A DNA stretch of 64,000 nucleotides from Bacteroidales bacterium (lineage in GTDB: Bacteria; Bacteroidota; Bacteroidia; Bacteroidales; P3), in NCBI GenBank assembly GCA_017477025.1, contig JAFUYA010000049.1, positions 24,051 to 88,050 on the forward strand, in the 5' to 3' direction. The translations under genes were made by a program, and so were the position numbers. This document shows positions 4,105 to 57,979 of this stretch, in pieces. Numbering within the stretch: the first letter of the stretch is position 1; every line of letters starts with the position of its first letter. Under the pieces are notes generated by a model, which saw nothing but the letters and a program-made list of their open reading frames with translations, was not told the DNA's origin and did not search any database.

Positions 4105-5097
4105 ATGTCTGATAATAAAAATTTGAGAAATGCCAACAGAGCAAAGAAAGATGAATTCTACACTCAATTAGAAGATATTGAAAAAGAATTAAGGCATTAT
4201 AAACAACATTTCAAAGGAAAGACTGTTTTGTGTAATTGTGATGACCCACGGGTAAGCAATTTCTTTACCTATTTTTCACATCATTTTGAATCGTTAGGAT
4301 TGAAAAAACTTATAACTTCCTGTTATAAGAACCAAGATATAGATTTGTTTTCGCAAAATTCATCAGATAAAGCCGTATATTTGGAATATACTGGCGACAA
4401 AAACGGAAACAAAATACCCGACAGAGAAGAAATAGAAGTAAAACCTTTGCATGATAACGGAGATTTCCGCTCCAATGAATGCAAAGAACTATTGAAGCAA
4501 GCGGATATAGTAGTTACCAATCCGCCGTTTAGTTTATTCAGAGAGTATTTGCAACAAATCATTGATTTTGATAAGAAGTTTTTAATAATCGGCAATTTGA
4601 ATGCAGTATCTTATAAAGAATGTTTTAAATTAATTAAAGACAATAAAATGTGGTTGGGTGCGAGTATTCACAGCGGTGACAGAAAATTCGGCGTTCCTGA
4701 TGATTATCCATTAAATGCTGCAACCTGCGGAATAGATGATAAAGGACAGAGATTTATAAGAGTTAAGGGCGTCCGTTGGTTTACTAATATGGACTACAAA
4801 GAGCGTCATGAAGACTTACCTTTATATAAGAAATATTCAGAAACAGACTATCCTAAATTTGATTATTACAATGCTATAAACATTGATGCAACGGCGGATA
4901 TACCTTGTGACTATGATGGCTTAATGGGTGTTCCTATTTCATTTCTTGATAGATATAATCCTGAGCAATTTGAAATCGTTGATGGCATAGGACGTTACAG
5001 TATGCTCACAGGACCGACGGAAGAAACAAAGGGTAAATATCTTACAAAGGTAAATGATAAGCCTAAATTTGCGCGAATAATTATTAGAAGAAAGTGA
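4105..5097 (+). CDS. N6-adenine DNA methyltransferase, EcoRI-methylase family
   Basis: DEFYTQ near the N-terminus, then CNCDDPRVSNFF, the catalytic motif IV VVTNPPFSLFREY, KKFLIIGN and GVPISFLDRYNPEQFEI. As I recall the sequence, these are collinear with M.EcoRI. Confidence 0.85.
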   Translation: MSDNKNLRNANRAKKDEFYTQLEDIEKELRHYKQHFKGKTVLCNCDDPRVSNFFTYFSHHFESLGLKKLITSCYKNQDIDLFSQNSSDKAVYLEYTGDKNGNKIPDREEIEVKPLHDNGDFRSNECKELLKQADIVVTNPPFSLFREYLQQIIDFDKKFLIIGNLNAVSYKECFKLIKDNKMWLGASIHSGDRKFGVPDDYPLNAATCGIDDKGQRFIRVKGVRWFTNMDYKERHEDLPLYKKYSETDYPKFDYYNAINIDATADIPCDYDGLMGVPISFLDRYNPEQFEIVDGIGRYSMLTGPTEETKGKYLTKVNDKPKFARIIIRRK

Positions 5098-5103
5098 AAT
5101 AAT

Positions 5104-6210
5104 ATGGAAGTAAAATTGCACGAAATAACCGTAAGACAATTAGTTGAGGGTTATGAAAACAGAGAAGATGAGGGCGTTGTTGGTTTCGGCGGGAAATTAG
5201 ACATACGTCCGCCTTATCAAAGGGAATTTATCTATTCCGCAGACAAACAAAAAGCCGTTATTGACACAATATTCAAGAATTTTCCGCTGAATATAATGTA
5301 TTGGGTCAAAAGAGATGATGGTACATTTGAAGTTATGGACGGGCAACAGCGGACTATGAGTATTTGTGAGTATTATTGTTGCAATTTTTCAATAGAAAAG
5401 GACGGCTATTTGAAAGGTTACGACAACCTTACCGACAAAGAGCAGGAGGATTTTCTCAATTATAAACTTATGGTTTATTTTTGTGAGGGCAATGATTATG
5501 AAAAATTGCAGTGGTTTAAGACAATAAACATTGCAGGCGAGGATTTGTCCGACCAAGAAATGAGAAACGCAGTGTATAACGGCTCATGGGTGAATAATGC
5601 AAAGGTTTGGTTCAGCAAAAAAGTGGCAGGATGTCCAGCATACCAGGTAGGAAGCCCGTATATTGCCTCTTCGGTGAAAATAAACCGCCAAGGGCTTTTG
5701 GAACTTGCGATAAAATGGATAAGCAAGGGCAACATCAATGAATATATGAAACAACATCAACATGACAAAGACGCAACGGAACTTTGGAATTATTACAAAA
5801 GCGTCATTGAGTGGGCGGAAAACCTGTTCGGAAAGCCGAGAAAAGAAATGAAAGGCTTACCTTGGGGAGAGTATTACAATGAATACAAAGACCAAGAGTT
5901 TAATCCTGAGGCTATTCGGCAAAGAGTTGATTTCCTAATGCAAGACGAGGAGATAGAAAACAAAAAAGGTATTTATCTTTATGTACTTGACGGAAAAGAA
6001 AAGCATTTAAATCTGCGTCAATTCCCTGAAAACATCAGAAGAACGGTATATGAAAAACAGGAAGGCAAATGTTTTGTCTGCAAAAAGGAATTTGAGTTTG
6101 AAGAAATGGAGGGCGATCATTGGAAATCGTGGCATAAGGGAGGAAAAACGGAAATAGATAATTGCAGGATGCTTTGTCGTGACTGTAATAGGGAGAAATC
6201 GGGAAAATAA
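5104..6210 (+). CDS. DUF262 (ParB/GmrS-like) domain protein with C-terminal HNH endonuclease finger
   Basis: The N-terminus carries PPYQREFIY and the hallmark VMDGQQRTMSI of DUF262. The C-terminus reads CFVCKK...EGDHWKSWHKGG...NCRMLCRDCNREK (CxxC...DH...N...CxxC, an HNH finger). It starts 6 nt after the methyltransferase stop. Confidence 0.85.
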   Translation: MEVKLHEITVRQLVEGYENREDEGVVGFGGKLDIRPPYQREFIYSADKQKAVIDTIFKNFPLNIMYWVKRDDGTFEVMDGQQRTMSICEYYCCNFSIEKDGYLKGYDNLTDKEQEDFLNYKLMVYFCEGNDYEKLQWFKTINIAGEDLSDQEMRNAVYNGSWVNNAKVWFSKKVAGCPAYQVGSPYIASSVKINRQGLLELAIKWISKGNINEYMKQHQHDKDATELWNYYKSVIEWAENLFGKPRKEMKGLPWGEYYNEYKDQEFNPEAIRQRVDFLMQDEEIENKKGIYLYVLDGKEKHLNLRQFPENIRRTVYEKQEGKCFVCKKEFEFEEMEGDHWKSWHKGGKTEIDNCRMLCRDCNREKSGK

Positions 6211-47065: not shown

Positions 47066-48439
47066 TTAATTATCGTTTAGTAGTTCTTCTATTTGTGGTA
47101 CTAATCTGTCAATATCTCCGGCTCCAAAAGTAATTAAAAATTTTGGATTAAGGGCTTCTAATAACGGAAAAAGTTGTTCTTTATTTACTAAATACTTATC
47201 CATTTTATTTATTTTGTGCAGTAGTAAGTGAGAATCCACTCCTGCAATAGGCTCTTCTCTTGCCGGATATATCGGTAATAATATTACTTCGTCCAATTTC
47301 TCCAATGCTTTTGCAAAATCATCTGCAAAATCTCTCGTTCTGGAATATAAATGCGGTTGAAATATCCCTGTTATCTTTTCTTGTGGATACATCTGTCGTA
47401 AGGAATCTATGCATGAGGTAATCTCTTTCGGGTGATGTGCATAATCATCAATGAAGATTCTGTTATTATTTTTTATTCTGAAATCCAGTCTGCGTTTCAT
47501 TCCACTGAAAGATTTCAATCCTTGTCGCAGTATTTGTTCTCTTTCTTTAATATTGACATTAATACTTTTCAGAGCAAAATTACATACGGTCAGAGCAGCT
47601 ACTGCATTTTCCACATTATGCATACCGGGATAGGACATTTGCATATCATACCAAACCCCGTCATCGTGTTTATAATCGAAAAAATAACATCCTTTGCTGA
47701 TACGAAGATTCCAGGCATAGTTATCGGATTCTGTATTTAGAGAAGAATATGTGCGTAGAGGTATTCTATTTCTGAGATCTTTAATCAGACGTTCTTGATC
47801 CTGTCTTACTAAAAGAAGACCGTCTTTATTTGTCAGACAAGCAAATTGTTCAAATGCGTCATGCAGGTTTTCATAGTTATGATAAATATCCATATGGTCT
47901 GCATCAATAGCTGTTATAACGGAAACAAACGGATTTAGCTGCAAAAAGCTTCTGTCGTATTCATCAGCTTCCGCTACAATGAATTTAGAATTTTTATTGT
48001 ATATGAAGTTAGTGTCAGCACTTTTCAGGATACCTCCCAAAAAGGCACTGCATCCATAATCTGAAGAAGATAGAATGTGAGTAATCATGCCACAGGTTGT
48101 TGTTTTGCCGTGTGAACCTGCAACAGCCAGAACCTTTTTGTCTTTAGTTATGTGTCCCAATGCTACAGAGCGTTTTTCCAAAGGAATATTCTGTTGTTTT
48201 ATATAGTTTAGTTGCTCATTATTTTCAGGTATTGCGGGAGTATATATGCATAAGTCTATGTTGTTCGGGACATTTTCTTTTTTATCTTCATAATTGATTT
48301 TAATGCCTTCTTTTTCCAGTTGTATTGTCAACTCACTGCGTGTTTTGTCATAACCGCTTACATCATCGCCTTTTGTATTTAAGTAACGGGCGATGGCACT
48401 CATACCTATTCCTCCTATTCCCAGAAAATAAATTTTCAT
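47066..48439 (-). CDS. murC: UDP-N-acetylmuramate--L-alanine ligase
   Basis: FLGIGGIGMSAIA, the P-loop AGSHGKTTT, and DDYAHHP. Confidence 0.95.
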   Translation of the reverse strand: MKIYFLGIGGIGMSAIARYLNTKGDDVSGYDKTRSELTIQLEKEGIKINYEDKKENVPNNIDLCIYTPAIPENNEQLNYIKQQNIPLEKRSVALGHITKDKKVLAVAGSHGKTTTCGMITHILSSSDYGCSAFLGGILKSADTNFIYNKNSKFIVAEADEYDRSFLQLNPFVSVITAIDADHMDIYHNYENLHDAFEQFACLTNKDGLLLVRQDQERLIKDLRNRIPLRTYSSLNTESDNYAWNLRISKGCYFFDYKHDDGVWYDMQMSYPGMHNVENAVAALTVCNFALKSINVNIKEREQILRQGLKSFSGMKRRLDFRIKNNNRIFIDDYAHHPKEITSCIDSLRQMYPQEKITGIFQPHLYSRTRDFADDFAKALEKLDEVILLPIYPAREEPIAGVDSHLLLHKINKMDKYLVNKEQLFPLLEALNPKFLITFGAGDIDRLVPQIEELLNDN

Positions 48440-49616: not shown

Positions 49617-50819
49617 TTATTGTGTTTGATTAATATCTTCTTGTTCTGATGTATTGTATGTTATTGGAGTTTCGTCTTTATCATCCGTTACTTTTTTTGT
49701 TATGTTTAGAGTTATTCCTAAGAATATGCTGGCAAAAACAAAGGATGTTCCTCCGTAAGAAATAAAAGGTAATGTTTGCCCTGTTACAGGAATAAGACCT
49801 ACAGCTACGCTCATATTAATAAGAGTCTGTAAGGTAATGATGATTCCCATAGACAAACATGCCATAGACCCGAAGTATCCGTCAATATTTCTTGCGGTTT
49901 TAAACATTCTGTATAGCAATATGATGTATAATAAGATGATAAAACCTCCTAACAATATACCTCCTTCCTCCAAGATAATTGAAAAAATAAAATCATTATG
50001 GGCTTCGTCAAGGAATCTTGACTGAATACTGTTTCCTATACCTCTTCCTATTAATCCGCTTGTAGCAATTGCCGTTAAAGATAAGTTTGTCTGAGTTAAA
50101 GCCCTGTAATCAATTCTTGTATGGCCCTCCGTTCTGGCTAATATCGTTCCAAGACGTCCGATTTTACTTGCAAATTCAGGACTGTATCTGGCTATCGTCA
50201 GAAGTATTCCTATGAATACAACCAAACATAACAACATAGTGTACAAATATTTTTTTCTTACACCCCCTATACGCATCAATATGAAACTTGTTATAAATAT
50301 TAAAACGGAAGTTGAAAAGTTTGACCAGAAAACAATGCCACAGACAATGAACAAAGGTATCATCAAAGAATAAAAAACTTTTTTATCTTCAATATGATCC
50401 TGGTTATTTGCCATTATCATGCATATATAGAATAACGTTACATATTTTGCTATTTCCGACGGTTGGAATTGCAGGTTGTAGAAACCCAAATTTATCCTTA
50501 TCCATCTTGCCATTGAAACAGTAGTATGGTTGAAAAGGGCCTGCAGGTACGGTACGCAGGTTAGGATAATTGAGAACCACAGCAAAACTTTTAAGATCTT
50601 TGTTATTTTACGGTAATCCGTTCTATGGAACAAAAAACAACATACGAAACCTATGATAAGCCAGATAATATGGCGTAACAGCAGAGGAAGAAAACTTCCA
50701 CCGCCTATTTCTTTTCCCATAGCAGAGAAGACCTCTACTATACTGATAAAGATAAATAGGAAATATACAATCCAGATTACCTTATCCCCTTGTAATATTT
50801 TATTTTTTATGTTTCCCAA
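49617..50819 (-). CDS. ftsW: SEDS-family lipid II flippase/peptidoglycan polymerase FtsW
   Basis: 400 aa and polytopic. FQPSEIAK, HNDFIFS and LPFISYGGTS. Confidence 0.9.
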   Translation of the reverse strand: MGNIKNKILQGDKVIWIVYFLFIFISIVEVFSAMGKEIGGGSFLPLLLRHIIWLIIGFVCCFLFHRTDYRKITKILKVLLWFSIILTCVPYLQALFNHTTVSMARWIRINLGFYNLQFQPSEIAKYVTLFYICMIMANNQDHIEDKKVFYSLMIPLFIVCGIVFWSNFSTSVLIFITSFILMRIGGVRKKYLYTMLLCLVVFIGILLTIARYSPEFASKIGRLGTILARTEGHTRIDYRALTQTNLSLTAIATSGLIGRGIGNSIQSRFLDEAHNDFIFSIILEEGGILLGGFIILLYIILLYRMFKTARNIDGYFGSMACLSMGIIITLQTLINMSVAVGLIPVTGQTLPFISYGGTSFVFASIFLGITLNITKKVTDDKDETPITYNTSEQEDINQTQ

Positions 50820-50843
50820 TTTTCTTTTTATATTAAATATTCG

Positions 50844-51332
50844 TTACATGGAAAAGACTTTCTCCTCAAATACCTTGGAGAGAAAAGTATTGACACAACT
50901 ATCTTGTTCAAAAGAAGTGAAAATGATACAGTCATCTATTGTAGCGATTTTGGCTGCCATGGAAGTATTTTGCAGAATGTCATCTTTTGAAGCGTTGGTG
51001 ATGAATACCTGTCTTATTTTTGACCCGAGAGTACTTGAAACACTTTTAATCTCATCACGGCTAACAGTACCTTTATTTACAATCCATATAATATTTTTAG
51101 CAGTTTTTGAGAATAACAACCATGCCGAATTGATGTTTTGTACTCCTACAGCATTGATGTATTCTACTCCGGACACAACTGCGACGGTATGATGATTGTT
51201 TTGCGTATTTTTCCTTAAAAATCCTCGCATAAGTATTTGGTTACGCATTTTGCGTATGTTATTATATGTTCGCTCGGACTTCAATGTATATTTTCCTTCC
51301 TCCGTTGTTGATGCTAATTCTTCAATTGTCAT
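50844..51332 (-). CDS. diverged Mur-ligase C-terminal-domain-only protein occupying the murD slot (truncated murD relic or repurposed domain)
   Basis: 162 aa. HHTVAVVSGVEYINAVGVQNINSAW...NIIWIV is collinear with the HR.E.V...GV.[FY]INDSKATN..S block that opens the MurD C-terminal domain. No GxxGK[ST] P-loop or N-terminal Rossmann domain is present. Only 531 bp separate mraY and ftsW. Confidence 0.55.
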   Translation of the reverse strand: MTIEELASTTEEGKYTLKSERTYNNIRKMRNQILMRGFLRKNTQNNHHTVAVVSGVEYINAVGVQNINSAWLLFSKTAKNIIWIVNKGTVSRDEIKSVSSTLGSKIRQVFITNASKDDILQNTSMAAKIATIDDCIIFTSFEQDSCVNTFLSKVFEEKVFSM

Positions 51333-51350: not shown

Positions 51351-52604
51351 TTATCTTAGTTTAAGGGTTATAATTGTTATCACTGCCAAAATTATACTTA
51401 TTAAAAAGAAACGTTGTACAATTTTACTCTCGTGCCAGCCTTTTTTTTGAAAATGATGATGTATGGGAGTCATAAGGAAGATTCTCTTTCCCTCTCCGTA
51501 TTTTTTCTTTGTATATTTAAAATATGATACCTGCATTATTACACTTACGCTCTCAACGAGGAATATCCCGCATAGTAGAACTAAAAGCCATTCTTTTCTT
51601 ATTAATATCGCCAATACGGCAATTATACCTCCTATTGTTAAAGACCCAGTGTCCCCCATAAATACTTGTGCAGGGAAAGTATTGTACCAAAGAAAGCCTG
51701 CAGTAGCTCCGACGAAGGCAGCTATGAATATTGTCAATTCACCGATGTTAGGAATATACATTATGTTGAGGTAATTTGCGAAAATTATATTACCGCTTAC
51801 CCAGGCAAGGATGCCTAAAGTGGAACCTATTATTGCAGAAGTTCCCGTTGCAAGCCCGTCAATTCCATCGGTTAGATTAGCTCCGTTACTTACGGCTGTT
51901 ATAATCAGTATCACGATAGGGATAAAGATCAGCCATGCCCAGTTTTTATAATTTTTGGTAAAAGGCTTGAGAATCTTACTATAATCAAATTCATGACCCT
52001 TAATGAAAGGGATAGTAGTTTTAGTACTTCTGACGCTTTCTTTTGAGAATTGTTGTTTTGCTTTCTCGTATGTTGTCTCAACCTGCAAATTGTGAGTTTG
52101 CGAGTACTCGGCAATATCTTGTTTTTCTTTGATAACAATATCATTAGAAAAGAACATCATACTTCCGACAATTATACCCAAGCTGATTTGTCCCAATATT
52201 TTACCCCAACCGTTCATACCTTCCTTATGTTTCTTGAAGACCTTGATATAGTCATCCATGAAACCTAACAGACCTAACCAAATTGTCGTAATAATCATTA
52301 TGATTATATATATATTGTCCAATTTACAGAATAGCAATACAGGGACTAAAATACCGAACAAAATAATCAATCCGCCCATTGTCGGGGTTCCTTCTTTTTC
52401 TTTTTGTCCTGCAAGACCCAAATCTCTGACCGTTTCGCCGATTTGTTGTTTTTTCAGAATATTTATTAATTTTCCTCCGAAAACAATGGTAATCAGCAAA
52501 GATACTATTGCAGAGGCAGCCGCACGAAATGAAATGTACTGAAACACTCCTGCTCCGGGGAAATCAAAACCCTCATCCAACCATCTGAACAAATAATACA
52601 ACAT
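51351..52604 (-). CDS. mraY: phospho-N-acetylmuramoyl-pentapeptide transferase
   Basis: [38 protein letters not shown] and PIHHHF. Confidence 0.95.
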
Positions 52605-52653: not shown

Positions 52654-54162
52654 TTATTTCATCAACTCTTCTTTGTCGTCAAAATGATGTTTAACTCCTT
52701 TGATCTCCTGATAATTCTCATGACCCTTCCCTGCAATTAATATAATATCGTTCTTTTTTGCTAAAGCTATTGCAATTTTTATTGCTTCCCGTCTGTCTGT
52801 TATCGAGAACACCTGTTTATTTTCCGTATCATGCACCTGATCCAAGCCTTTCTCCATATCTTTTATTATGTCTTCGGGATTTTCATCACGAGGATTATCA
52901 CTTGTCAATATCAAAATATCACTGAGTTTATATGATATTTCGGCCATCAAAGGGCGTTTTGTCTTATCTCTGTTGCCTCCGCAACCTATTACGGTGATAA
53001 TCTTTTGGGTAAGAGAAGTGCGACAATCGTTTATCGTATTTAGTACATTCTCTACTGCATCCGGTGTGTGTGCGTAGTCAATTATTCCGTAGGCTTCATT
53101 TCTTAGTTTATATATTTCAAATCTTCCTTTTGCAGCTTTCAACATCGAAAGATTTTTTAATACGTCCAACTTATCGGCACCCAACAATATAGCGGTAGAA
53201 TAAACAGCCAAAAGGTTGTACGCATTGAATTTTCCCACCAAAGCAAGACGCACCGGTAAGTTGCGATAGGCATTTAAAGAGTCCTCAAATGTTATTTCCA
53301 TATCTTCCAAAGAGGATTCCAGTATCTTGGCTTTAAAATCTGCCTTTGCATTTTTCAACGAATACAGATAACGTTTTGCTTTTGTGTTTTGCAACATGAC
53401 CTCGCCGTTCTTGTCGTCTATGTTTGATAATGCAAATGCTGACGCAGGCAAATCGTCAAAAAACTTTTTCTTCGCTTTGATGTATGCGGCGAATGTTTTG
53501 TGATAGTCCAAATGATCAAGAGTTATATTGGAAAATATTGCTCCTGCAAACTCCAATCCTGCAATACGATTTTGAACAACTGAATGCGAACTGACTTCCA
53601 TAAATGCATATTGACAGTTCCGAGCAACCATTTCGCTCAATAGTTCATTTAGCGTTATGCTGTCGGGTGTCGTTCTCTCAGTAGGTAACACCTTGTCGGC
53701 AATCATATTTTCGACAGTAGATATTTTACCGCATTTGTATCCGAGTTTGGTAAATAGTTCATGTAATAAAGTAACCGTTGTGGTTTTTCCATTCGTACCG
53801 GTGATACCTACAAGTTTCAGTTTAGCAGACGGATTATCATAAAAGTTCTTTGCTGTTTGTGCCAAAGTAAGAGAAGAACTCTTTACTCTTATATATAATA
53901 CGGAATCATCATTTGCACAATATTCTGCATTGTCGAAAATAATAACTTTCGCTCCGTTGTTTACGGCTTTGTCAATGAACAGATGTCCGTCCGTAACTTC
54001 TCCTTTCTCTGCAATAAACAGATAATTATCTTTCACCTTACGACTATCGAAAGCAATACCCTCAATGTATATCGAATCCAAATTGTACGGTACTCCGTTC
54101 AAAGTGGTATTTTCAATATTGTATTCTACGTTTAGTAATATGTCTTGTAAATTCTTTGTCAT
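52654..54162 (-). CDS. murE: UDP-N-acetylmuramoyl-L-alanyl-D-glutamate--2,6-diaminopimelate ligase
   Basis: The P-loop GITGTNGKTTT, MEVSSH, NITLDHLDYH, DYAHTPDA and the DAP-specificity-like DNPR motif (TSDNPRDE). Confidence 0.95.
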   Translation of the reverse strand: MTKNLQDILLNVEYNIENTTLNGVPYNLDSIYIEGIAFDSRKVKDNYLFIAEKGEVTDGHLFIDKAVNNGAKVIIFDNAEYCANDDSVLYIRVKSSSLTLAQTAKNFYDNPSAKLKLVGITGTNGKTTTVTLLHELFTKLGYKCGKISTVENMIADKVLPTERTTPDSITLNELLSEMVARNCQYAFMEVSSHSVVQNRIAGLEFAGAIFSNITLDHLDYHKTFAAYIKAKKKFFDDLPASAFALSNIDDKNGEVMLQNTKAKRYLYSLKNAKADFKAKILESSLEDMEITFEDSLNAYRNLPVRLALVGKFNAYNLLAVYSTAILLGADKLDVLKNLSMLKAAKGRFEIYKLRNEAYGIIDYAHTPDAVENVLNTINDCRTSLTQKIITVIGCGGNRDKTKRPLMAEISYKLSDILILTSDNPRDENPEDIIKDMEKGLDQVHDTENKQVFSITDRREAIKIAIALAKKNDIILIAGKGHENYQEIKGVKHHFDDKEELMK

Positions 54163-56298
54163 CTATTTTTTTGTTAATGTAAGGATTATAGTTTTTCCTC
54201 TTTCAATCTTAGTATTAGGTTTTATACTCTGTTCTTTTACATTGCCGTAACCGGAAAACGTTACTTTCAATCCCAATCTTTCCAAGACAAACAGGGCATC
54301 TGACAGATTCCATCCTTTCAAGTCAGGGACTTTATCCGACAGAAGAGCAGATTTTATTTTGACGGAGTTATCAACAAATCTGTTTTTCTTATCCGTAGTT
54401 GAGTAAGAAGTAATATTGTTACTTTTTGCGATGTTATTTTGTGATGTTTCTTCAACCCTTTGAGCATTTACTCCCATAACTCTGTCGCTTATTTCTCTGA
54501 AAACAGGAGCTGCCAGATCTCCTCCGTGCGTTACTCCGCCTTTCGGTTCATTGATAACGACAATGCAGGAATATTGCGGGTTGTCTGCAGGGAAATAACC
54601 GGCAAAAGAAGCTCTGTGCAAACGATGTTGGCTCTTTACGTCTCCGCCTGAATAATTGACTTCAGCCGTACCTGATTTTCCGGCAATGCCGTATGATGCG
54701 GACTTAAGTCTTCGCCCCGTTCCGTAGATGACCACACGTTTAAGAATATCCTGTAAGATTTTTACGGTTTCGGGTTTGCACATTCTGCGTTTCAAAGTGT
54801 CTGCAGAGAATGTTTTTATTACTTGTCCGTCTTGCAATACCTGACGTACGAAAATCGGTTTGAGCATTATACCCCCGTTTGCTATACCGTTATAGAAAGT
54901 TAAGAGTTGGAGCGGAGTCATAGCTGTAACATAGCCGAAAGACATACGTAATAAATCGTCCGTATAGCGGGAAGAACCTATTGTAGGCAGAGGTTCATGG
55001 ACCATTATATCCGTTTCCAATTTTTTATACGGGAAGTATTCCTGTAAGTCTTTGGCAAACTGCTCTCTGCTTTTATAATTTTGTCCGTAATAGTCATAAA
55101 CCAAACTGCTTATTCCTACATTGGAGGATATTTCCATTGCACGGGTTAAAGAAACGTCCTTATCTCTGCCTTTTTTATTGACGTCATAGATAGGTTTTGA
55201 TGCATTCGGAAATTCTTTCATTCCCGTCGGAACGATTATTGAAGTATCGCAATAGCCTTTGTCCAAAAGCATCATGTCAGTTACGGTCTTGAATGTACTT
55301 CCCGGTTCATAACGACTGCCGACTGCAATATTGCGATCTTCGTAGTAGTAATAGTCATCCTTTTCTTCCTGATCAGTTTTCTTTTTTCTATCTTTCAGAG
55401 TCTTACGAGTGAAAGAGGCCAATGCTTTAATATAGCCTGTTTTCGTTTCCATCAAAATAACGCAGCCTTCTTTAGCATCGTTACTGTCAAGGCATTTTTT
55501 CAATGCCGTTTCAGCCAATTCCTGTAAAGGAATATCCAATGTAGTTATAATATCATTGCCTCTTTTAGGCTTTATAAGCAATGTGTCGTCAATAGGTATC
55601 CACAAGTTCGGGGCAATCTTTCTTTCCAATCGCTCGCCTTTACTGCCTTGTAAAGTACTTGCATAAAAACCTTCGATGCCGTTACTTGTGTCAATACCGT
55701 CTTTTATGTATTCTATTCCGATAGTTCTTCGTGCCAAATCGCCGTAAGGATAAACTCGTTTGTATTTCAAATCTGCGAAAATGGCATTGCGTATTTTTCC
55801 GAAATTTTTCAATGCATCCAAATCATCCTGCCTTGCCATTTTGGCAATAAGTGTTCCTCTGTTTCTTTCTGCACGGTTTTTTTGCAGATATTCTTCCCAT
55901 TGGGTTTTTGTTTTTGAAGGAAATCGTTGAGAAAGTAAGGAACACAAGTCATTCAGGCGACGTTTCCAAAGTGTATCTGCAATTACCCAATCTATTTTGT
56001 CTTTTTCCCCGACTGCATTTATTTTTCCTATGCCCAAATCCAAGTAAATGTCATATCGTATCTCGTTAGCAGCCAACAAAAGCAACTCTCCGGTAACATT
56101 ATCATAAGAATATATGTTTCCTTTCGGGGCATAAAAGGAGCGTTTTTGAATCAAACGTTCATTACTTATTGAATCAAAAACCGTCCTGTCGCTCGTTTTC
56201 AGTCTTATTGCTTTTACGAATATGATTATAAAGACTACTACGAACAGCCAATATAACAAAGGAACTATCGTTTTAATATTTTTATCAAATCCGGACAC
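54163..56298 (-). CDS. ftsI: penicillin-binding protein (FtsI/PBP3-like transpeptidase) with C-terminal PASTA domain
   Basis: N-terminal TM anchor, STFK (PGSTFKT), SSN (ISSNVG) and KSG (GKSGTA) transpeptidase motifs, and a C-terminal PASTA-like KGWNLSDALFVLERLGLKV. Confidence 0.9.
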   Translation of the reverse strand: MSGFDKNIKTIVPLLYWLFVVVFIIIFVKAIRLKTSDRTVFDSISNERLIQKRSFYAPKGNIYSYDNVTGELLLLAANEIRYDIYLDLGIGKINAVGEKDKIDWVIADTLWKRRLNDLCSLLSQRFPSKTKTQWEEYLQKNRAERNRGTLIAKMARQDDLDALKNFGKIRNAIFADLKYKRVYPYGDLARRTIGIEYIKDGIDTSNGIEGFYASTLQGSKGERLERKIAPNLWIPIDDTLLIKPKRGNDIITTLDIPLQELAETALKKCLDSNDAKEGCVILMETKTGYIKALASFTRKTLKDRKKKTDQEEKDDYYYYEDRNIAVGSRYEPGSTFKTVTDMMLLDKGYCDTSIIVPTGMKEFPNASKPIYDVNKKGRDKDVSLTRAMEISSNVGISSLVYDYYGQNYKSREQFAKDLQEYFPYKKLETDIMVHEPLPTIGSSRYTDDLLRMSFGYVTAMTPLQLLTFYNGIANGGIMLKPIFVRQVLQDGQVIKTFSADTLKRRMCKPETVKILQDILKRVVIYGTGRRLKSASYGIAGKSGTAEVNYSGGDVKSQHRLHRASFAGYFPADNPQYSCIVVINEPKGGVTHGGDLAAPVFREISDRVMGVNAQRVEETSQNNIAKSNNITSYSTTDKKNRFVDNSVKIKSALLSDKVPDLKGWNLSDALFVLERLGLKVTFSGYGNVKEQSIKPNTKIERGKTIILTLTKK

Positions 56299-56302
56299 TT
56301 AT

Positions 56303-56608
56303 CTATTCAATAATTATAATATCCTTAACTTCTTCTTTACTGATGGCAATACCCCTCGGAGCTAATCTTTCGTTGAGTTGCTGCATTGAAATGGTGTTCT
56401 GATAGATAGTTTTGGTTTTTAAAGATTTTTCCTGTAAAGCAGTTATCTCTGCCGCCAATTTATTAATATCCCTTATAGTGTGTTCACAGGTGAATCGAAA
56501 TCCTATGTAAATCACTAAAAGCAATACACAGAAACTTAAAAACAAAAGATTTTTGCCCGTTATCTTTTGTAAGAAAGTTCCGTTTAATATTTTGGTTACA
56601 ACATTCAT
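56303..56608 (-). CDS. ftsL: FtsL-like cell division protein
   Basis: 101 aa with one TM followed by a coiled coil. The position between rsmH and ftsI supports the call. Confidence 0.6.
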   Translation of the reverse strand: MNVVTKILNGTFLQKITGKNLLFLSFCVLLLVIYIGFRFTCEHTIRDINKLAAEITALQEKSLKTKTIYQNTISMQQLNERLAPRGIAISKEEVKDIIIIE

Positions 56609-56616
56609 ATCTTTTT

Positions 56617-57534
56617 TTACTTCTTCTCTGCTATTCTCAGTTTGGCACTTCTTGCACGCGAATTGTTACATATCTCTTCTTCGGAAGGTGTTATCGGTTT
56701 TCTTGTTATCGGTTTGTAAGGAGTATTTACGTTTCCGTAGAAATCTTTCTCAATTATGCCTTTTGTATTTCCCGAACGTATCAATTCTTTGACCTTTTTA
56801 TCTTCCAAAGAATGATAAGATATGACTGCCAACCGCCCTTGAGACTTAAGCATTCCCTCACATTGGTTAAGCATGGAATCAAGAGAGGAAAGTTCGTCAT
56901 TTACTTCAATTCGCAATGCCTGAAATATCTTGGCAAAAAACTTATTTTCAATATTAGGCTTGGTAAGCGACTTCAATATTCCGCAAAGTTCGGTTGTTGT
57001 GGCAATATATTGCTCTTCACGTTTTTTGCATATCATTTTTGCCGTTTGTTTTGCATTAGGAATTTCGGCGTATGAGAAAAACAGTCCCGCAAGTTGTTCT
57101 TCGGTGTAAGAGTTGATAATGTCCGCAGCCGTAAATGCGGTATCAACATTCATTCTTAAATCGAGCGGAGCATCGCTGCGGAAAGAAAATCCGCGTTCGG
57201 AAGTATCAATCTGGTGAGAAGATATTCCAAGGTCGGCAAGTATGCCGTCAACTTGCGTAACTCTGTACAGTCTGAGTTGTTTTGTCATGTTGGAGTAGTC
57301 ATCGTTGATAAGGCAAAACCTTTCATCCTCAATGGTATTTTTAACAGAGTCTTTGTCCTTGTCGAAAGCGTAGAGTTGTCCGTTATTGCTCAATTTGTTG
57401 AGAATCGCACGGGAATGACCGCCTCCTCCGAAGGTTAAATCCACGTAAATACCGTCAGGATTAATGTTTAATCCTTCAAGGCATTCGTTAAGTAATACCG
57501 GAACGTGATATGTATTAGACGGACTTGTCGGCAT
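56617..57534 (-). CDS. rsmH: 16S rRNA (cytosine1402-N4)-methyltransferase
   Basis: HVPVLLNE, DLTFGGGGHS, ADLGISSHQ, SYHSLEDK and RARSAKLR. Confidence 0.95.
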   Translation of the reverse strand: MPTSPSNTYHVPVLLNECLEGLNINPDGIYVDLTFGGGGHSRAILNKLSNNGQLYAFDKDKDSVKNTIEDERFCLINDDYSNMTKQLRLYRVTQVDGILADLGISSHQIDTSERGFSFRSDAPLDLRMNVDTAFTAADIINSYTEEQLAGLFFSYAEIPNAKQTAKMICKKREEQYIATTTELCGILKSLTKPNIENKFFAKIFQALRIEVNDELSSLDSMLNQCEGMLKSQGRLAVISYHSLEDKKVKELIRSGNTKGIIEKDFYGNVNTPYKPITRKPITPSEEEICNNSRARSAKLRIAEKK

Positions 57535-57979
57535 TGGATGTTTTCAGCAAATTTTTCGCAACTTGTTTATAATCAAAGTTATCTTCCGAAGTTTTTTTGT
57601 AAGTATCCGCATCCCATATCTCAAGAAAATTGCCGGAACCTATTATTACGATTTCTTTTGTTATGTTAGTTGATTTTCTCATCATTTCCGGAATCAACAA
57701 ACGGTCAAAAGAATCCATTTCCAACATATTTCCCTCGATAAAACGGCGGTAAAGTTTCTTGGAATCAGGATCATAGAGATTCAGATTCTTGTTTAGAAAC
57801 GATACTTCTTTTTGAAAACTTTCGTAAGTAAAGACTTCCAAACAATCGTTGTAGATACTTTTGCGGATGAAGTAGCGATTGTCGGAAGCAATATCCAACT
57901 GCTTCTTTATCGCTGCAGGCATCTTGAATCTGCCTTGAGCATCCGTTTTACAATATTCTACACCTACCAACAAAGACAT
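57515..57979 (-). CDS. mraZ: transcriptional regulator MraZ
   Basis: Two DxxxR-type SpoVT/AbrB halves (DAQGRFKMP; DSFDRLLIP). First gene of the dcw cluster. It overlaps rsmH by 20 nt. Confidence 0.9.
   Translation of the reverse strand: MSLLVGVEYCKTDAQGRFKMPAAIKKQLDIASDNRYFIRKSIYNDCLEVFTYESFQKEVSFLNKNLNLYDPDSKKLYRRFIEGNMLEMDSFDRLLIPEMMRKSTNITKEIVIIGSGNFLEIWDADTYKKTSEDNFDYKQVAKNLLKTSNADKSV

Follow-up and report, generated by a model that had tools for sequence, protein, structure and literature searches.

The window analyzed here (64,000 nucleotides of contig JAFUYA010000049.1 from a Bacteroidales bacterium, assembly GCA_017477025.1, positions 24,051 to 88,050) carries a complete cell-wall and division (dcw) gene cluster in which a short gene, here called X, occupies the slot between mraY and ftsW where murD would be expected. 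MurD, the ligase that adds D-glutamate (D-Glu), is regarded both as an antibiotic target and as a step of peptidoglycan synthesis that is universal, essential and carried out by one polypeptide. On the minus strand, the ORF (open reading frame) list and the Pfam/NCBIfam matches give the order mraZ-rsmH-ftsL-ftsI-murE-mraY-X-ftsW-murG-murC-ftsQ-ftsA-ftsZ (Table 1), and the precomputed gene calls of contigs carrying a protein identical to the window's match this order. The gap between the end of mraY (51351) and the TTG start of ftsW (50819) is 531 bp long and holds X as its single ORF, beginning 18 nt past mraY and ending 24 nt ahead of ftsW, with no terminator-like site on the coding strand. 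The start of ftsW is itself ambiguous: the TTG gives a protein of 400 aa and the 24-nt gap after X, the first ATG (50720) one of 367 aa. The best NCBIfam match of this gene is TIGR02614 ftsW at 222.5 bits, under its cutoff of 337.5.

The G..GK[ST] motif is absent from all six frames of the mraY-ftsW gap. A MurD hidden Markov model (HMM) built from 18 full-length Bacteroidota proteins matches MurC, MurE and X only in the whole 64 kb, and nothing in the window resembles MurD domains 1 and 2 even with filters off and E<=50; X has no match to HMM positions 1-259. Neither MurC nor MurE is a MurD in disguise, since each clears its NCBIfam cutoff by a wide margin; against TIGR01087 (murD) the window's MurC reaches 116.4 bits, the cutoff being 211.95. 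The original prediction, made from the letters alone, had described this gene order, the 531-bp slot with its one 162-codon ORF 18 nt after mraY, the lack of a P-loop and of a MurD N-terminal domain there, and apparently intact MurC, MurE, MurG, MraY, FtsW and FtsI; all of this held against the ORF list, the gene calls, the six-frame motif check and the Pfam, NCBIfam and HMM searches. By our own arithmetic (A=T=0.32, G=C=0.18, that is, ~35-36% GC, with stops making up ~7% of random codons), a 162-codon open frame would arise by chance at this base composition with a probability of ~1e-5. A 179-aa ORF on the plus strand (50653-51192), antisense to X and the ftsW start, lacks support as a gene and is treated as spurious; similar antisense ORFs recur across AT-rich dcw loci.

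Table 1. Genes of the mraY-ftsW region of the window, the two parts of X, and additional MurD C-terminal-domain paralogues found between a full murD and ftsW at other loci (L-numbers are locus labels of this analysis).
Feature	Sequence	Positions	Strand	Description and support
mraZ	window	57515-57979	minus	
rsmH	window	56617-57534	minus	
ftsL	window	56303-56608	minus	
ftsI	window	54163-56298	minus	
murE	window	52654-54162	minus	502 aa, intact three-domain Mur ligase; NF001126 595.3 bits (cutoff 373); Pfam Mur_ligase, Mur_ligase_M, Mur_ligase_C
mraY	window	51351-52604	minus	417 aa, upstream neighbor of X; TIGR00445 321.9 bits (cutoff 192.05); Pfam Glycos_transf_4
X	window	50844-51332	minus	162 aa, stand-alone, strongly diverged MurD descendant; stop codon 50844-50846; equivalent to E. 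coli MurD ~257-437
X codons 1-40	window	51213-51332	minus	what is left of the MurD ATP-binding central domain (its last strand and helix); equivalents of His267, Asn268 and Asn271 lost
X codons 41-162	window	50847-51212	minus	predicted Mur-ligase C-terminal-domain fold, six strands and five helices
ftsW	window	49617-50819	minus	400 aa from the TTG, downstream neighbor of X; Pfam FTSW_RODA_SPOVE 188.8 bits
murC	window	47066-48439	minus	457 aa, intact three-domain Mur ligase; TIGR01082 murC 397.6 bits (cutoff 335.1)
extra paralogue	L033	12618-13217		
extra paralogue	L036	12634-13209		
extra paralogue	L052	11027-11596		
extra paralogue	L070	12575-13066		

Taken alone, X gives no meaningful match in Pfam, NCBIfam or PDB sequence searches. 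At E<=10 it has no hit to TIGR01087, leaving it short of the curated MurD cutoff, and none to Pfam Mur_ligase_C (PF02875, gathering threshold 28.4 bits); the three-domain MurD architecture with its GxxGK[ST] loop is likewise absent. Profile comparison, however, connects the two: a profile of the X clade matches, with E down to 1e-10, residues ~264-390 of full-length MurD encoded directly downstream of mraY in many genomes, the MurD HMM finds X at E 3e-7, and HHalign aligns X 1-142 with MurD 266-428 at 97.5% probability (E 5.6e-12). A model of X from AlphaFold2 (AF2) has a mean predicted local distance difference test score (pLDDT) of 79.7, rising to 86-96 over residues 50-162, and its six strands and five helices form the Mur-ligase C-terminal alpha/beta fold. 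In a Foldseek search of PDB with this model, 17 of the top 20 hits were MurD, the other three being 2am1, MurE 4bub and a DUF442 phosphatase; these 20 had a probability of ~1.0, query-normalized template modeling (TM) scores of 0.42-0.52 and E of ~2e-3 to 3e-2, with MurD 4buc, 1eeh, 7sy9 and 3lk7 matching best (TM 0.46-0.52, E ~2e-3). Relatives of X described below supply a chain to solved MurD, since the match to 3lk7 is strong in a conserved short gene (L037, 1.7e-31), weaker in an intermediate (L016, 2.5e-8) and lacking in X. Reciprocal HMM hits, HHalign and Foldseek rule out that the MurD likeness of X was an artefact of alignment by eye, and, judged from the HHalign match, the reciprocal hits and the graded intermediates, X is a protein that shares common descent with MurD.

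The extent of the likeness differs from that first proposed, which was the last third of MurD. In E. coli MurD numbering X begins at about residue 257, and the structural C-terminal domain follows some 40 residues later, at ~300 (PMC4816537). The final strand and helix of the ATP-binding domain are thus part of X, which corresponds to about the last 40% of MurD. Its C-terminal part carries a deletion of ~18 residues relative to MurD.

What X has lost was read by mapping the HMM to E. coli MurD numbering, which is used from here on unless HMM positions are named, with 112 full-length Bacteroidota MurD proteins as the reference set. The HMM columns H275, N276, N279, R310, D325, K327 and T329 are invariant in 112/112 of these and K354 is kept in 111/112; their E. 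coli equivalents are His267, Asn268, Asn271, Arg302, Asp317, Lys319, Thr321 and Lys348. By alignment and column statistics X has an equivalent of none of the eight, and the conserved set of ATP and D-Glu contacts (Asn268, Asn271, Arg302, Asp317, Lys319, Thr321, Lys348 and Ser415) is replaced. Arg302 touches the alpha-phosphate of ADP (PMC4816537) and Lys348 lies within the Glu recognition site (PMC8788868). The replacement of DSKAT by AVGVQ, noted from the start together with an unrecognizable SPACAS-like block, is confirmed by the alignment, in which SPACASFD (SPxCxSFD) is degenerate. With none of the ATP and D-Glu residues of MurD left, X would be unable to ligate.

The distribution of conservation within X lies elsewhere. 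In the X clade the N-terminal segment is the best-conserved part, with 26 of 39 positions invariant against 35 of 123 in the remainder, and follows the pattern MTIEELA...KxTLKSExTYxNIRxMRNxxLMxGFL. The AF2 model gives these ~40 residues a pLDDT of 39-61 and a long helix at 20-43 that is not confidently packed.

X is no isolated ORF. Five orthologues of exactly 162 aa, 51-59% identical, and one further strain variant, 99% identical, occupy the same slot in contigs from ENA, JGI, Logan and NCBI; the only database name we saw for a protein of this clade was "hypothetical protein." Across the six species of the clade the frame is open for 161-168 codons without frameshifts at 40-60% identity, and 61 of 162 alignment columns are invariant. 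The ratio (omega) of nonsynonymous (dN) to synonymous (dS) divergence is ~0.1-0.35, values that are rough because dS, at 1.1-4, is saturated. For the same pairs dN is 0.32-0.46 in X against 0.22-0.27 in ftsW and murG, indicating that constraint on X is weaker than on its neighbors; with dS above 1, omega comes to <=~0.3. (Contig L170, one base different from the window, was uninformative for dN/dS.) In the intermediate, conserved and tandem groups of short genes introduced below, omega is 0.05-0.17, like that of murG, murC and murE; purifying selection on the X clade is clear, and weaker than on these groups. Frames are intact and length is conserved in all six X-clade species and at all 31 short-gene loci, with omega far below 1. 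The idea that X is a retained, diverged domain-only protein rather than fresh debris is thus upheld by its homology, its orthologues and its omega, and the comparison of the slot among relatives, put forward as a check on that idea, agrees.

Among relatives the short slot is common. With the window's MraY as the query we searched the GTDB representatives, a single genome for each species, and kept the 80 closest loci. In 41 of these genomes the slot holds a full murD (~445 aa), in four an additional short paralogue comes after the full murD, and in four the slot is cut by a contig end; the other 31, which include a chromosome-level metagenome-assembled genome (MAG) of 3.5 Mb, have in a gap of ~510-630 bp only a gene of 160-190 aa that encodes a MurD tail. 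Every one of these short genes starts at the Met of HMM position 264, a residue conserved in 103 of the 112 full-length MurD proteins (for example, residue 263 of L019, or the "MVMTLQE" of L035). We define stand-alone MurD-tail proteins as those of 160-190 aa that are the sole mraY-ftsW gene and start at this Met264, and X has all of these features. The conservation of this Met raises the possibility that an internal translation start might release the C-terminal domain on its own also in species whose murD is full-length.

Most of these genes (22 of 31) are well conserved, scoring 207-305 bits on the MurD HMM over positions ~262-445, and what they keep is selective. All 22 have Asn316, Asp317 and Ser318, and nearly all have the SPxCxSFD (~22/22) and RG motifs; Arg302 is kept in 18, Lys or Arg at 319 in 17 and Thr or Ser at 321 in 19. 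His267 and Asn271 are found in none of the 22, Asn268 in four and Lys348 in three; the loss of His267 and Asn271, invariant in full-length MurD (HMM H275 and N279), extends to all short genes, and that of Asn268 to most. The remaining genes form a gradient on the MurD HMM from the conserved group (305-207 bits) through L016/L017 (130/123), L015 (99) and L012-14 (57-64) to the X clade (24-37; X itself 28), and PF02875 gives a parallel one: 48.1 bits for L037, 31.5 for the tandem paralogue in L033, 21.4 for L016/17, 18 for L013/15, 14.6 for L012 and none for X. At the position of NDSKATN the sequence reads DDSKS in L016/17, DDSDS in L015, DDAF in L012-14 and NAVGV, NLT or DAT in the X clade, a stepwise decay toward the window that tracks both MraY identity and MurD-HMM score. 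X is linked to the conserved short genes through L016/17, then L015, then L012-14, and from these alignments it is the extreme end of a graded series of short genes rather than a one-off.

A single ancient paralogue family as the sole origin of the short genes was rejected, several of them being closer to the full-length MurD of a sister species. Those of L026 and L044 are 67-69% identical to full-length L035, share its MVMTLQE start and are closer to it than to other short genes; that of L037 is 71% identical to a full-length gene. Together with an MraY tree in which short and full slot states interleave, this makes repeated truncation likely, and on single-protein neighbor-joining trees truncation of MurD probably happened more than once. 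Two murD genes in our contigs are broken in place: in L171 (2429-3789; JGI Ga0376078_0011628) an A6 run is shifted by one base exactly at the conserved internal Met, so that murD reads as two ORFs with a 7-nt overlap, one of 270 aa for the N-terminal and central domains and one of 184 aa for the tail, and every catalytic residue is still in place; in L172 (6942-8241) the parts are 313 and 105 aa. Sequencing error might explain these breaks, or they might mark the start of a truncation or split.

The four tandem paralogues (Table 1) are a separate group of 164-200 aa that begin at HMM ~276-307. Arg302 and Lys319 are gone from all four and Asp317 from three, while SPxCxSYD and RG are kept, and their omega is 0.05-0.11. 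To judge from these alignments, they show that apparently non-catalytic MurD-tail proteins can persist beside a full murD. Further, unassigned ORFs occur within the mraY-murD-ftsW stretch of other Bacteroidota: some of ~125 aa in Flavobacterium (L056 and L058, 12616-12990; L059, 11261-11638; L066, 11266-11634), while in L060 (12676-15414) murD is separated from ftsW by two, of 473 and 439 aa.

Searches for the D-Glu ligase of the short-gene organisms gave a consistent negative picture. Six-frame ORFs of the window searched with phmmer and the MurD HMM gave MurC, MurE and X with no other part of MurD, Pfam found no ligase among 20 further window proteins, and ~8 kb beyond the right end of the window contained nothing relevant to this ligase. 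Around the 31 short-gene loci, up to 10 kb of flanking sequence held neither a full murD nor a gene for the MurD N-terminal/central part; the genes enriched near short-type loci, considered as ligase candidates and rejected, were antisense ORFs, a flavin adenine dinucleotide (FAD) oxidoreductase, a sigma-54 activator and a secreted repeat protein. In the protein database, the best 120 hits of an N-terminal/central profile were full-length apart from one short hit (P0159), a contig-end truncation. A second query took the N-terminal/central part from L035, whose full-length gene is sister to those of short-gene species L026 and L044, and its best 120 hits included no relocated or fragment gene: two seeming fragments (P0204 and P0257) were in-place frameshifts, and the two closest relatives of the query (P0171 and P0176) stood in ordinary mraY-murD-ftsW context. 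In a metagenome scan with the N-terminal/central profile, 80/80 loci had a full murD, adjoining mraY wherever upstream sequence was present; a scan of viral contigs was irrelevant to the MurD search. Because the N-terminal/central hits in these samples are all full-length or in dcw context, any murD elsewhere in these organisms would not be a close orthologue of ordinary Bacteroidales MurD. The MurD2/MurL route of other bacteria was considered and rejected, with no report of it in Bacteroidota and nothing that ties it to X. The literature searched describes neither stand-alone MurD-tail genes nor dcw clusters without murD in Bacteroidota.

We favor, with a probability of roughly 0.55, the explanation that X is a functional, non-enzymatic descendant of MurD that serves as a binding partner in the Mur/divisome machinery, the gene for the D-Glu ligase lying elsewhere. 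An ancestor of the window's Bacteroidales lineage lost the first ~263 codons of its dcw murD, and the remainder, whose start is a Met conserved within full-length MurD, persisted as a separate gene between mraY and ftsW. In the window lineage the residues that contact ATP and D-Glu in MurD were then shed stepwise, while fold, length, operon position and purifying selection were kept. X, to go by its residues, would no longer take any part in ligation. Most likely it acts by binding some protein of the divisome or of the machinery that makes peptidoglycan precursors in the cytoplasm. Its fixed operon position and reports that Mur enzymes associate physically (PMC10214165) point to the true D-Glu ligase, another Mur ligase, MraY, MurG or FtsW as candidate partners. 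The binding element may be the N-terminal ~40 residues, since a segment that is at once the most conserved and modeled as a low-confidence free helix has the pattern expected of a docking element. D-Glu would be added by the product of a gene that lies elsewhere and falls outside the close orthologues of ordinary Bacteroidales murD. As to history, it is plausible that the gene was truncated or split with its tail still catalytic and that another gene took over in the window lineage, leaving a non-catalytic role; the steps after truncation are conjecture.

Several points weigh against this explanation. Six sequences underlie the AF2 model of X, whose Foldseek E-values are modest (~2e-3); X evolves 1.3-1.8 times faster than ftsW and murG, and its omega is rough given the saturated dS; and the proposed binding is read solely from conservation patterns. 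A MurD elsewhere is deduced from intact murC, murE and mraY rather than observed, and the window, the ~8 kb beyond it and the flanks of ≤10 kb contain no full murD, N-terminal/central fragment or alternative ligase. Taking all short-gene loci jointly, we regard as possible, though doubtful, the broader proposal that the 31 of 80 Bacteroidales without a canonical dcw murD use either a split MurD or a non-orthologous enzyme, and that the tail has a second, non-catalytic role that is the sole survivor in X.

X might instead be a ligand sensor, in which an altered C-terminal-domain pocket binds a small molecule such as a nucleotide precursor or amino acid and tunes steps linked to mraY and ftsW, instead of serving as a scaffold. 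The ancestral domain is indeed ligand-binding (PMC4816537), and the confidently predicted core of X (pLDDT 86-96 over residues 50-162) is under selection, but the residues that lined the ancestral pocket are the very ones replaced, and conservation is strongest in the N-terminal helix region and not at the pocket; we therefore hold a sensor to be unlikely.

The main rival is a split, two-piece MurD, in which the tail would act in catalysis with a separate N-terminal/central polypeptide. For the conserved short genes this is attractive: they keep residues that face the active site (Asn316/Asp317/Ser318, Arg302, Lys/Arg319, Thr/Ser321 and SPxCxSFD), while the tandem paralogues beside a full murD have lost Arg302 and Lys319, a contrast that catalysis in trans predicts. 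In MurD the C-terminal domain rotates, as one rigid body, onto the remainder of the enzyme (PMC4816537), and the murD of L171 is broken in place exactly at this boundary. Yet His267 and Asn271 are missing from all the short genes, Asn268 and Lys348 from most, and no N-terminal/central-only gene outside the dcw context appeared among the best 120 hits of either protein search, the 80 metagenome loci or the flanks. The fit to X is poor, the catalytic and substrate residues that face the active site all being gone from it, and for X itself we rate a split ligase as rather improbable.

That X is a decaying remnant, its frame kept open only by translational coupling to ftsW or for lack of time, might be argued from its faster evolution than all its neighbors, its loss of every catalytic motif and its lack of any Pfam, NCBIfam or PDB sequence hit; the frame, however, is open at 161-168 aa in six species whose synonymous sites are saturated, with 61 of 162 columns invariant, omega of ~0.1-0.35, a confidently predicted fold and a chance of ~1e-5 for an open frame, and decay is a very improbable account. 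The short gap is all that speaks for a full murD collapsed out of the window contig in assembly, an explanation excluded for practical purposes because the slot of 510-700 bp with a short gene recurs in dozens of independent assemblies (31 of 80 species genomes from many projects, the 3.5-Mb chromosome-level MAG among them, and X-clade contigs obtained independently from ENA, JGI, Logan and NCBI), and X carries its own diverged sequence rather than that of a plain truncated murD.

The Mur-ligase C-terminal domain is already known as a building block; what appears to be new is its existence as a separate, selected protein, catalytically dead in the window lineage as judged from its residues, and the scale of this across relatives. 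In many Bacteroidales of gut, rumen and sediment the dcw murD is reduced to a tail domain that is still selected. Much of the interest of the finding depends on where the short-gene genomes encode their D-Glu ligase. That ligase would be present in an unrecognized form or place, which affects the annotation of this pathway in MAGs; if murD simply lies elsewhere, the finding shrinks to a new, widespread pseudo-enzyme family of modest interest. A function of the MurD C-terminal domain that is separable from catalysis would bear on the long-held idea of a complex of the Mur enzymes with MraY, MurG and the divisome, and the graded series from an intact active-site face to the degenerate X offers a natural way to separate the two roles.

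Some features of these loci are recorded for their own sake. The dcw FtsI, a transpeptidase of the penicillin-binding protein 3 (PBP3) type, ends in a PASTA domain in the window and in relatives L001, L005, L173 and L174, and this ending is common to the whole group of Bacteroidales that includes the window. Four genomes with a short MurD-tail gene (L032, 12954-15608; L042, 12954-15593; L065, 13008-15635; L084, 11573-14125) have at the usual murG-murC place an ORF of ~850-885 aa whose C-terminal half matches MurC; from their position and this match they look like MurG-MurC fusions, a type reported mainly in Actinobacteria (PMC10214165). Elsewhere in the window, an EcoRI-type adenine methyltransferase (Pfam 465 bits) adjoins a GmrSD_N and HNH nuclease (4105-5097 and 5104-6210), likely a restriction-modification or modification-dependent restriction pair.

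Among known systems, X is closest to MurD itself (E. coli b0088; PDB 1uag, 3uag, 3lk7 and 4buc; TIGR01087), from whose last ~180 residues it derives: both occupy the mraY-ftsW slot and share the C-terminal-domain fold, but X lacks the uridine diphosphate (UDP)-binding N-terminal domain, the P-loop central domain and the eight listed residues, and would be no ligase on its own. With the conserved short genes (a subset of L020-L084, 180-190 aa) it has in common the slot, the Met264 start, the loss of the ATP-binding His and Asn and purifying selection; they differ in keeping Asp317, Lys/Arg319, Thr/Ser321 and SPxCxSFD, in scoring 207-305 bits on the MurD HMM against 28 for X, in passing PF02875 (L037, the one tested) and in being ~20 residues longer. 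The plant MurE-like protein of the plastid RNA polymerase complex is a member of the Mur-ligase family in a non-ligase structural role, unlike X in that it is full-length, belongs to a eukaryotic organelle and is of unrelated origin. The natural Mur fusions (MurE-MurF, MurG-MurC and MurD-FtsW; PMC10214165) attest to the plasticity of dcw gene architecture and the physical association of Mur proteins; they are complete enzymes, whereas X is a single separated domain without catalytic residues. In the MurD2/MurL system of Xanthomonas, too, D-Glu incorporation departs from canonical MurD and involves a MurD paralogue, but MurD2 is a full three-domain ligase and MurL an ATP-dependent epimerase, and the system is reported from Gamma- and Alphaproteobacteria and rare actinobacteria, not from Bacteroidota (PMC8788868). 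The best functional analogy for X may be the tandem paralogues of L033, L036, L052 and L070; although they coexist with a full murD, begin further in, keep SPxCxSYD and RG and are not close relatives of X, they too are small, stand-alone MurD C-terminal-domain proteins beside ftsW that have lost the equivalents of Arg302, Asp317 and Lys319 and yet are under strong selection.

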